IMG/VR virus record: IMGVR_UViG_2877982868_000002
Strand: one strand, 5' to 3'
From: a virus
Lineage: Duplodnaviria; Heunggongvirae; Uroviricota; Caudoviricetes
DNA: 48,765 nt
Of the stretch, positions 24,914 through 26,467 are shown one piece after another (within the stretch, counting starts at the first letter, position 1; the number at the start of each line of letters is the position of its first letter). A program made the translations under genes and the position numbers. A model generated the notes under the pieces. That model was not told the origin of the DNA. It saw only the letters and a program-made list of their open reading frames with translations, and made no database searches.

Positions 24914-26467
24914 TGGGACGCATAATTGATCTTGACGGAAAACCTTTCTCCTTTGACCCGGAGATGCAGAGTGCCGTGCTGGATATTCCGCAGATTGCCA
25001 GCCGTTATATTGAACATCCGGCCTCGGGTATCACCCCGAACCGGGCGGCACAGTGCCTTCGCGGAGCTGAACGTGGCGATCTGATTGCCCAGTCCGATCT
25101 GGCCGCTGACATTGAAGAAAAGGATACCCACCTTTTTGCAGAGCTGGGCAAGCGACGCCTTGCCATTCAGGGGGTGTCCTGGAGTATTGAGCCGCCCCCG
25201 AACGCCAGCGCGAATGAGAAAAAGGACGCGGAAATGCTCGACGAATATCTGCATTCCGCCGACTGGTTTGATGCCATGCTGTTTGATGGAGATTGAGCAC
25301 GGGATGCTCGGTAAAATGCACATCATCCGCGCCATCCGCTGGCGTGACAGCGGGCATTTCTGCCTTAACCCGGATGATTTGAGCGAACTGCGGCTGCGTG
25401 ACGGCAGCCATGCCGGGGTGGCGTTTCAGCCCTTTGGCTGGATAGTGCATCAGTCGCGTTCACGCACTGGCTACGGTGGTGCGACGGGGCTTGTCAGAAC
25501 GCTTATCTGGCCGTTCATTTTCAAAAACTATTCCGTGCGCGATCTGGCTGAATTTCTGGAGGTGTACGGCCTGCCGATGAAGGTCGGTAAATACCCGTCC
25601 GGGGCAACACCGGAGCAGAAAAGCGCCCTGATGCGGGCGGTGATGGATATCGGGCGACGTACAGGCGGGATCATCCCGGCCGGGATGTCGCTGGAGTTTC
25701 AGGCGGCAGCGAACGGTCAGGCCGATCCGTTTGAAACCATGATTTCGTGGGGGGAGCGTTCCATCTCCAAAGCTATCCTCGGCGGCACGCTGACCACGGA
25801 AGCCGGAGACAAGGGCGCACGTTCGCTGGGTGAAGTGCATAACGAGGTGCGCCGGGAAATCAGGGATTCTGATTTACGTCAGCTGGCCGCCACGCTGAAC
25901 CGCGATCTGGTGTATCCGCTGTATGCCCTGAACACCGCCCACGCCATTGATATCCGTCGCCTGCCGCGTATCTGTTTCCAGACAAAAGAGCCGGGGGATA
26001 TCACCAAAATCACCAGTGCGGTGATGCAGCTCAGTACGGGGATGGATATTCCTGATCCCTGGGTGCGGGAGCAGACCGGTATTCCACAGCCTGCCCCCGG
26101 TGAAGCCATCTTCCGTGTCCGTCAGAGTGGCAATGAACCTGCTCAGACAGACAAAGAGATGCCACCGGAAAAACAGGAGAAGACAGAGCAGACAGCGCTG
26201 GCTGCCAGACTGCCGGAAGCGAAGAGCAGCCCCCGAGATGAACTGGACGACATGGGGGATGCGGTGCCTGCCCGCCGGTTACAGGAGGCCATCGACCCGG
26301 TACTGGAGCCGGTCATTGAAGCCATCAGAACGCGGGGGCTGGCGGAGGCACTGGCAGACCTGCCTGCCCTTTACCGTGAAATGGATGATTCCCGCCTGAT
26401 GACGCTGCTCAGTGATGCCATGTTTGCTGCGGAAATGAAGGGGATGCTGGATGGCACAGGGGATTGA
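24904..26467 (+). CDS. Portal protein (Mu gp29-like), reading frame interrupted by apparent +1 frameshift near 25288-25296
   Basis: N-terminal 130 codons in one frame (24904-25296, stop TGA 25294) and remainder in next frame (protein continues ...IEHGMLGKMHIIRAIRW... to 26467); both parts portal-like. Confidence 0.7.

Follow-up and report, generated by a model that had tools for sequence, protein, structure and literature searches.

A Mu-like prophage in an O157:H7-type siiEA gene carries a portal gene split by a 35-base gap, probably a recent strain-private deletion

The DNA analysed here (the window; 48,765 nucleotides, one strand) comprises a piece of bacterial chromosome and a Mu-like transposable prophage that is inserted into it. 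Window bases 1-9,671 match siiEA, a giant adhesin gene, of the O157:H7 references EDL933 and Sakai with 100% identity, this identity ends at 9671, and matches to prophages begin at 9672, i.e. the prophage occupies positions 9672-48765 of the + strand and reaches the end of the window, its right end lying outside the view. As judged from its sequence, the host chromosome of the prophage is of the E. coli O157:H7 type. The insertion disrupts siiEA, and the site, 9671/9672, is occupied in no other complete RefSeq E. coli genome. Strain 380-94 carries an independent Mu-like insertion ~0.9 kb further into siiEA; a shared insertion with this strain was considered and rejected, as the site is different, the Mu-like prophage is a different one and the portal gene is intact there. 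In the Mu-like prophage of 380-94 a feature termed 'tRNA-OTHER' lies on the minus strand between the genes for MuF and virion morphogenesis (positions 46386-46465 of the locus, L010).

The closest relative of the window prophage is the prophage of O157:H7 strain Z1813, with 98.9% identity over 25 kb, and the annotation of the modules was taken from it. When the coding sequences of the Z1813 prophage were compared with the window by tblastn, 56 of the 57 were found at full length and free of gaps, the portal gene being the sole exception. The full-length set comprises a MuA-type transposase, a MuB-type ATPase, Gam, Mor, a lysis cassette, the Mu-type head and contractile-tail modules, an invertible fibre region with its recombinase and a Com/Mom-like right end. 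The invertible tail-fibre region (42460-44504) is of the Mu G-segment type, the alternative fibre C-termini being located in inverted orientation on the minus strand at 42460-42636 and 43537-43884 and adjoined by a gene for a Gin-like recombinase (43947-44504). The ORF at 30669-31079, located between the genes for the major head protein and gp36, contains 12.8 perfect copies of the hexanucleotide AGCCGA (30947-31023), a repeat that encodes (EA)13; the product of the ORF is a small HI1506-related/FluMu_N protein, which in relatives ranges from 119 to 142 amino acids in steps of two, so that the gene behaves as a length-variable repeat locus. The last coding sequence of the window, encoding a hypothetical protein, lies downstream of the gene for a Com-family regulator, and the window end (48028-48765) is ~130 bases short of the point where the prophage should terminate, the right junction and with it any 5-bp target duplication thus lying outside the window.

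The portal locus is embedded in a conserved set of head genes. Upstream of it, the gene for a gp28-type large terminase homologue of 554 amino acids (23249-24913, + strand; identified from the annotation of relatives and from Mu and D108) is intact and 100% identical, and its stop codon shares one base with the portal start. Downstream, a gene for a MuF-type head morphogenesis protein of 443 amino acids (26451-27782, + strand), recognized by the Pfam families Phage_Mu_F and MuF_C, is intact as well and overlaps the 3' end of the portal gene by 17 bases. Exactly this MuF-type protein is widespread and adjoins a called portal of 529 amino acids in eight of the ten loci shown. The order of the genes, i.e. 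large terminase homologue, portal, MuF, is the same in the window, its relatives, Mu and D108.

Within the portal locus, the list of open reading frames (ORFs) and the sequence itself reveal two overlapping ORFs on the + strand between 24900 and 26470. The upstream ORF, in frame 1, extends from a GTG at 24904 or 24913 to the TGA at 25294-25296 and ends ...HSADWFDAMLFDGD*. As GTG 24913 is the portal start annotated by PGAP in intact relatives, the 5' fragment of the portal gene is placed at 24913-25296; it contains codons 1-125 of a 529-codon gene, after which the shifted frame adds Gly-Asp and the TGA. The open stretch of frame 2 extends from 25085 to 26467, reading ...LMEIEHGMLGKMHIIRAIRW..., and the portal sequence resumes in it as MEIEHGMLGKMHIIRAIRW... 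up to 26467. The 3' fragment (25286-26467, + strand) corresponds to codons 137-529, as defined by translation, tblastn and Pfam. Aligned to the window by tblastn, residues 1-125 of the intact Z1813 portal map to 24913-25287 in frame 1 and residues 137-529 to 25286-26464 in frame 2, the latter with 100% identity. Accordingly, no single uninterrupted portal frame is found in the window, the break being located at 25285/25286 and the stop at 25294-25296. The preliminary description had already noted a break of the portal frame at this place, and the split, its coordinates and the terminal ...DAMLFDGD* are all borne out; its explanation by one extra base has to be replaced by a 35-base gap.

Both fragments belong to the same family. 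Against the Pfam profile Portal_Mu (PF06074), which has a curated cut-off of 23.9 bits, the N-terminal piece matches profile positions 2-61 (35.7 bits, E 8e-9) and the C-terminal piece positions 84-336 (240.9 bits, E 3e-71), both scores being above the cut-off, and ~22 profile positions between the two pieces are left without a match. By profile, colinearity and gene order the portal locus of the window is of the Portal_Mu/DUF935 (Mu gp29-type) family, in agreement with the earlier assignment. The intact allele, which equals the window sequence apart from the gap, aligns with residues 1-529 to residues 1-511 of PDB entry 9khx (E 6e-194).

The cause of the split is apparent from an alignment of the window with two intact copies, which shows a 35-base gap in the window. 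The 35 bases ATGCCACCGATGCCATCCTGAAGGGCTATTCCTGT, which all relatives have, are absent between 25285 and 25286 (deletion scar 25285-25288, + strand), and the ATG at 25286-25288 constitutes a microhomology of three bases common to both breakpoints. The missing stretch corresponds to codons 126-136 (ATDAILKGYSC) plus two bases, resulting in a +1 change of frame. Apart from this single gap of 35 nucleotides, the portal DNA of the window has no mismatch in blastn to the commonest 529-residue allele (WP_000532592.1). The segment is present in all 12 intact relatives that were aligned. A megablast search with the region 24700-26500 found matches in 229 of 5,426 complete E. coli genomes, the best of which are 100% identical but split in two, the 1,801-base query being spread over 1,836 bases. 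The missing 35-mer was not found elsewhere in the window, even with up to three mismatches allowed, and no fold bridging the breakpoints as a hairpin was better than those of shuffled sequence.

The lost residues are conserved well beyond the STEC prophages. ATDAILKGYSC aligns without gaps to AGDAILKGYSM of Mu gp29 (PDB 9khx), 9 of the 11 residues being identical, and also without gaps to ALDGIGHGYSC of the portal in 8rka, which is likewise solved but more distant. The conserved stretch D-x-I-x-x-G-Y-S is thus part of the segment that the window portal has lost, and from the alignment with both Mu gp29 and the 8rka portal we infer that the deleted residues lie in the conserved portal core.

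The occurrence of the junction in other sequences was examined with a 48-mer centred on the deletion, a design that keeps intact copies from seeding a match. This 48-mer has no match in 5,426 complete E. coli genomes and none in the phage collection; a control 48-mer just left of the junction is present in 214 of the same 5,426 genomes, none of which has the junction. Likewise, a 41-mer across the junction is absent from species-representative genomes, viral contigs and metagenome contigs, and the exact products of the split ORFs (two start variants of the N-terminal fragment, and the C-terminal fragment with two further starts) have not been recorded. Among all collections searched, the window sequence alone has the deletion. 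A protein of 393 amino acids beginning with 'MEIEHG...' is on record, from draft contigs that start exactly at portal nt 409. These entries are partial genes at contig starts, the contigs do not have the deletion, and the products were therefore rejected as support for either a short portal or the deletion. Among the 16 draft or Logan contigs read, at least six (L003-L008) begin at nt 409, i.e. at the right edge of the deletion. The contig break follows a common T/C polymorphism at portal nt 408 between co-resident Mu-like copies, and these contig starts are likely breaks of the assembly graph where a genome has two Mu-like copies. A natively shorter portal that begins downstream of 25296, the finding that would have spoken against a broken gene, can be rejected: the homologues are continuous proteins of 529 residues, and alignment to intact Mu gp29 homologues, the check proposed at the outset, shows the frame to be broken in the window.

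Based on these findings, we consider it likely that the split originated by a deletion; the intactness of the other prophage genes argues that this lesion is both very recent and private to the strain. Nevertheless, the true portal might be intact, the 35 bases having been dropped in assembly, polishing or contig joining. This would fit with the finding that the deletion is unique to the window sequence in every collection searched and with the two to four Mu-like copies of many STEC genomes; moreover, two positions within the missing stretch, portal nt 396 and 408, vary among the common alleles, and draft assemblies break at nt 409, where short-read graph assemblers are known to have trouble when two Mu-like copies coexist. 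For the left breakpoint, at nt 373/376, however, no matching polymorphism is known, and the assembly does not appear noisy: 9.7 kb of chromosome are 100% identical to the references, 56 prophage genes are intact and spurious indels are absent, the sole other indels near the portal being natural variants, e.g. the hexanucleotide repeat, which changes in multiples of 6. Frameshifts caused by read errors look different. In the broken portals of L013 and L018, blastn shows three gaps of one base each, unlike the single, clean loss of 35 bases in the window, and these gaps look like errors of the long-read consensus rather than biology. (The portal gene is uncalled in both GCA_026134135.1, L013 positions 2429-4017, and GCA_021461615.1, L018 positions 2431-4017, and in L018 several neighbouring gene calls are missing as well.) The sequencing error that the preliminary description had offered as an option is thus the less likely one, and we regard an artefact as improbable, if clearly more than a formality. 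What speaks against a deletion in the living strain is that the junction turned up in none of the other public sequences searched and that the split products are unrecorded.

Two further explanations take the DNA as it stands. A single extra base near 25288, as first proposed, would produce the net +1 change of frame that is observed, but the alignment with the 12 intact relatives contains no inserted base at all and the 35-base gap instead, and taking one base out would not bring back residues 126-136, leaving this explanation with practically no probability. Alternatively, the gene might still work: ribosomes might undergo programmed +1/-2 frameshifting, or the portal might consist of two pieces, the N-terminal fragment being complemented by a C-terminal fragment reinitiated at ATG 25286 or ATG 25304 after the TGA at 25294. 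Frame 2 is indeed open over the entire overlap from 25085. In translational coupling, a start codon a few bases upstream of a stop codon can allow termination-reinitiation, and the ATG at 25286, 8 bases upstream of the frame-1 stop, has a geometry that would permit this. All relatives, however, encode one continuous protein, and the break is found in none of the 214 E. coli genomes that carry the adjacent sequence, so that no conservation points to a programmed event. In addition, the last frame-1 codons, CTG TTT GAT GGA GAT TGA, contain no slippery site, a shift from GAU to AUU proceeding without re-pairing of the tRNA; there is no Shine-Dalgarno sequence before ATG 25286 and no properly spaced Shine-Dalgarno-like stimulator, as the GGAG overlaps the last sense codons; and the local DNA fold, with z = +1.35 against shuffles, is not more stable than expected. 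Any product of either route would also be devoid of the 11 residues that are conserved to Mu and to the more distant solved portal. Recoding, which had been suggested as a possible rescue, thus finds no signal in the sequence and would leave these 11 codons missing. Altogether, a gene that is functional by recoding or in two pieces is very improbable, and it is exceedingly improbable that the split gene yields a working portal, be it from the 127-residue N-terminal and a reinitiated C-terminal fragment or from a fusion made by rare frameshifting, despite the loss of D-x-I-x-x-G-Y-S.

A deletion in the portal gene probably arose in one event, i.e. the 35 bases would have been lost between two ATG triplets by microhomology-mediated slippage or illegitimate recombination. 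Translation from GTG 24913 would then stop at TGA 25294 after 127 residues, and the remaining 393 codons, lying in the next frame, would stay untranslated or be weakly reinitiated at best. Tailed phages in general require a portal. Without the dodecameric portal the prohead would not be nucleated properly and DNA would not be packaged; thus, the conservation of the lost segment, together with the general requirement for a portal, suggests that portal function is lost and that DNA-filled heads are not formed. Unless it obtains the portal in trans from a second Mu-like prophage, the prophage is therefore probably unable to yield infective particles; this supports, as probable, the defect in particle formation anticipated in the preliminary description. 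Additionally, the stop codon is located 1.17 kb upstream of the MuF start, which overlaps the portal gene, and the expression of downstream head genes may drop by polarity. As the genes for transposase, MuB, Mor, lysis and tail are intact, transposition and killing of the host on induction should remain possible.

These considerations bear on how the locus should be annotated and read. The proper annotation is a portal pseudogene that results from a 35-base deletion, neither two genes nor a recoding site, and the Mu-like prophage of the window should not be assumed to be a producer of infective particles. With its transposition and lysis genes intact, the prophage could still move, rearrange the chromosome or kill the cell on induction. 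What we observe is ordinary decay of a prophage by a pseudogenising deletion, unless, with lower probability, the assembly went wrong at this very position; neither programmed frameshifting nor a novel type of system is involved. With one lesion and otherwise pristine, the prophage illustrates cleanly, in nature, how prophage decay, a well-known process, begins.

Programmed frameshifts, such as those of the tail assembly chaperone G/GT and of prfB, resemble the window portal in that two overlapping frames lie within one functional gene. The window portal, in contrast, has no slippery heptamer, no site of the CUU-UGA type, no Shine-Dalgarno and no structural stimulator, and its frame break is not conserved in any relative and is explained by the deletion. 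The closest counterpart with a known structure is the portal of Mu itself, gp29 (gene H; PDB 9khx/9knu), a dodecamer that connects the head with the adaptor gp36 and has the domains crown, wing, stem and clip (PMC11915804). The two are colinear over their full length and are encoded at the same place, after the large terminase homologue and before the MuF-type protein, but Mu gp29 is uninterrupted, whereas the window copy is devoid of codons 126-136 plus two bases and does not encode a full-length portal.

Among the Mu-like prophages of STEC, those of Sakai (Sp18) and FRIK804 (Phi804-3) are of the same family, with 98-99% DNA identity over 25 kb. Their portal DNA is that of the window apart from the gap and encodes an intact portal of 529 residues (WP_000532592.1). 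The family is functional elsewhere, Sp18 having been predicted to be intact and its DNA being packaged efficiently (PMC2669165). Mu-like prophages are found at strain-specific sites in O157 genomes (PMC7430833), as expected of a transposable phage; the window copy is located in siiEA and has the private deletion. Finally, O157 also harbours defective prophages whose morphogenesis genes are hit by frameshifts, deletions or IS insertions (Asadulghani et al. 2009, PMC2669165). The window prophage is similar to them in that a single inactivating lesion affects a head-morphogenesis gene while the prophage is otherwise complete, and in that a related prophage in the same cell could rescue it in trans; however, the catalogued defective prophages of Sakai are mostly lambdoid with several defects each (PMC2669165), whereas the prophage of the window is a Mu-like element with exactly one detectable defect.
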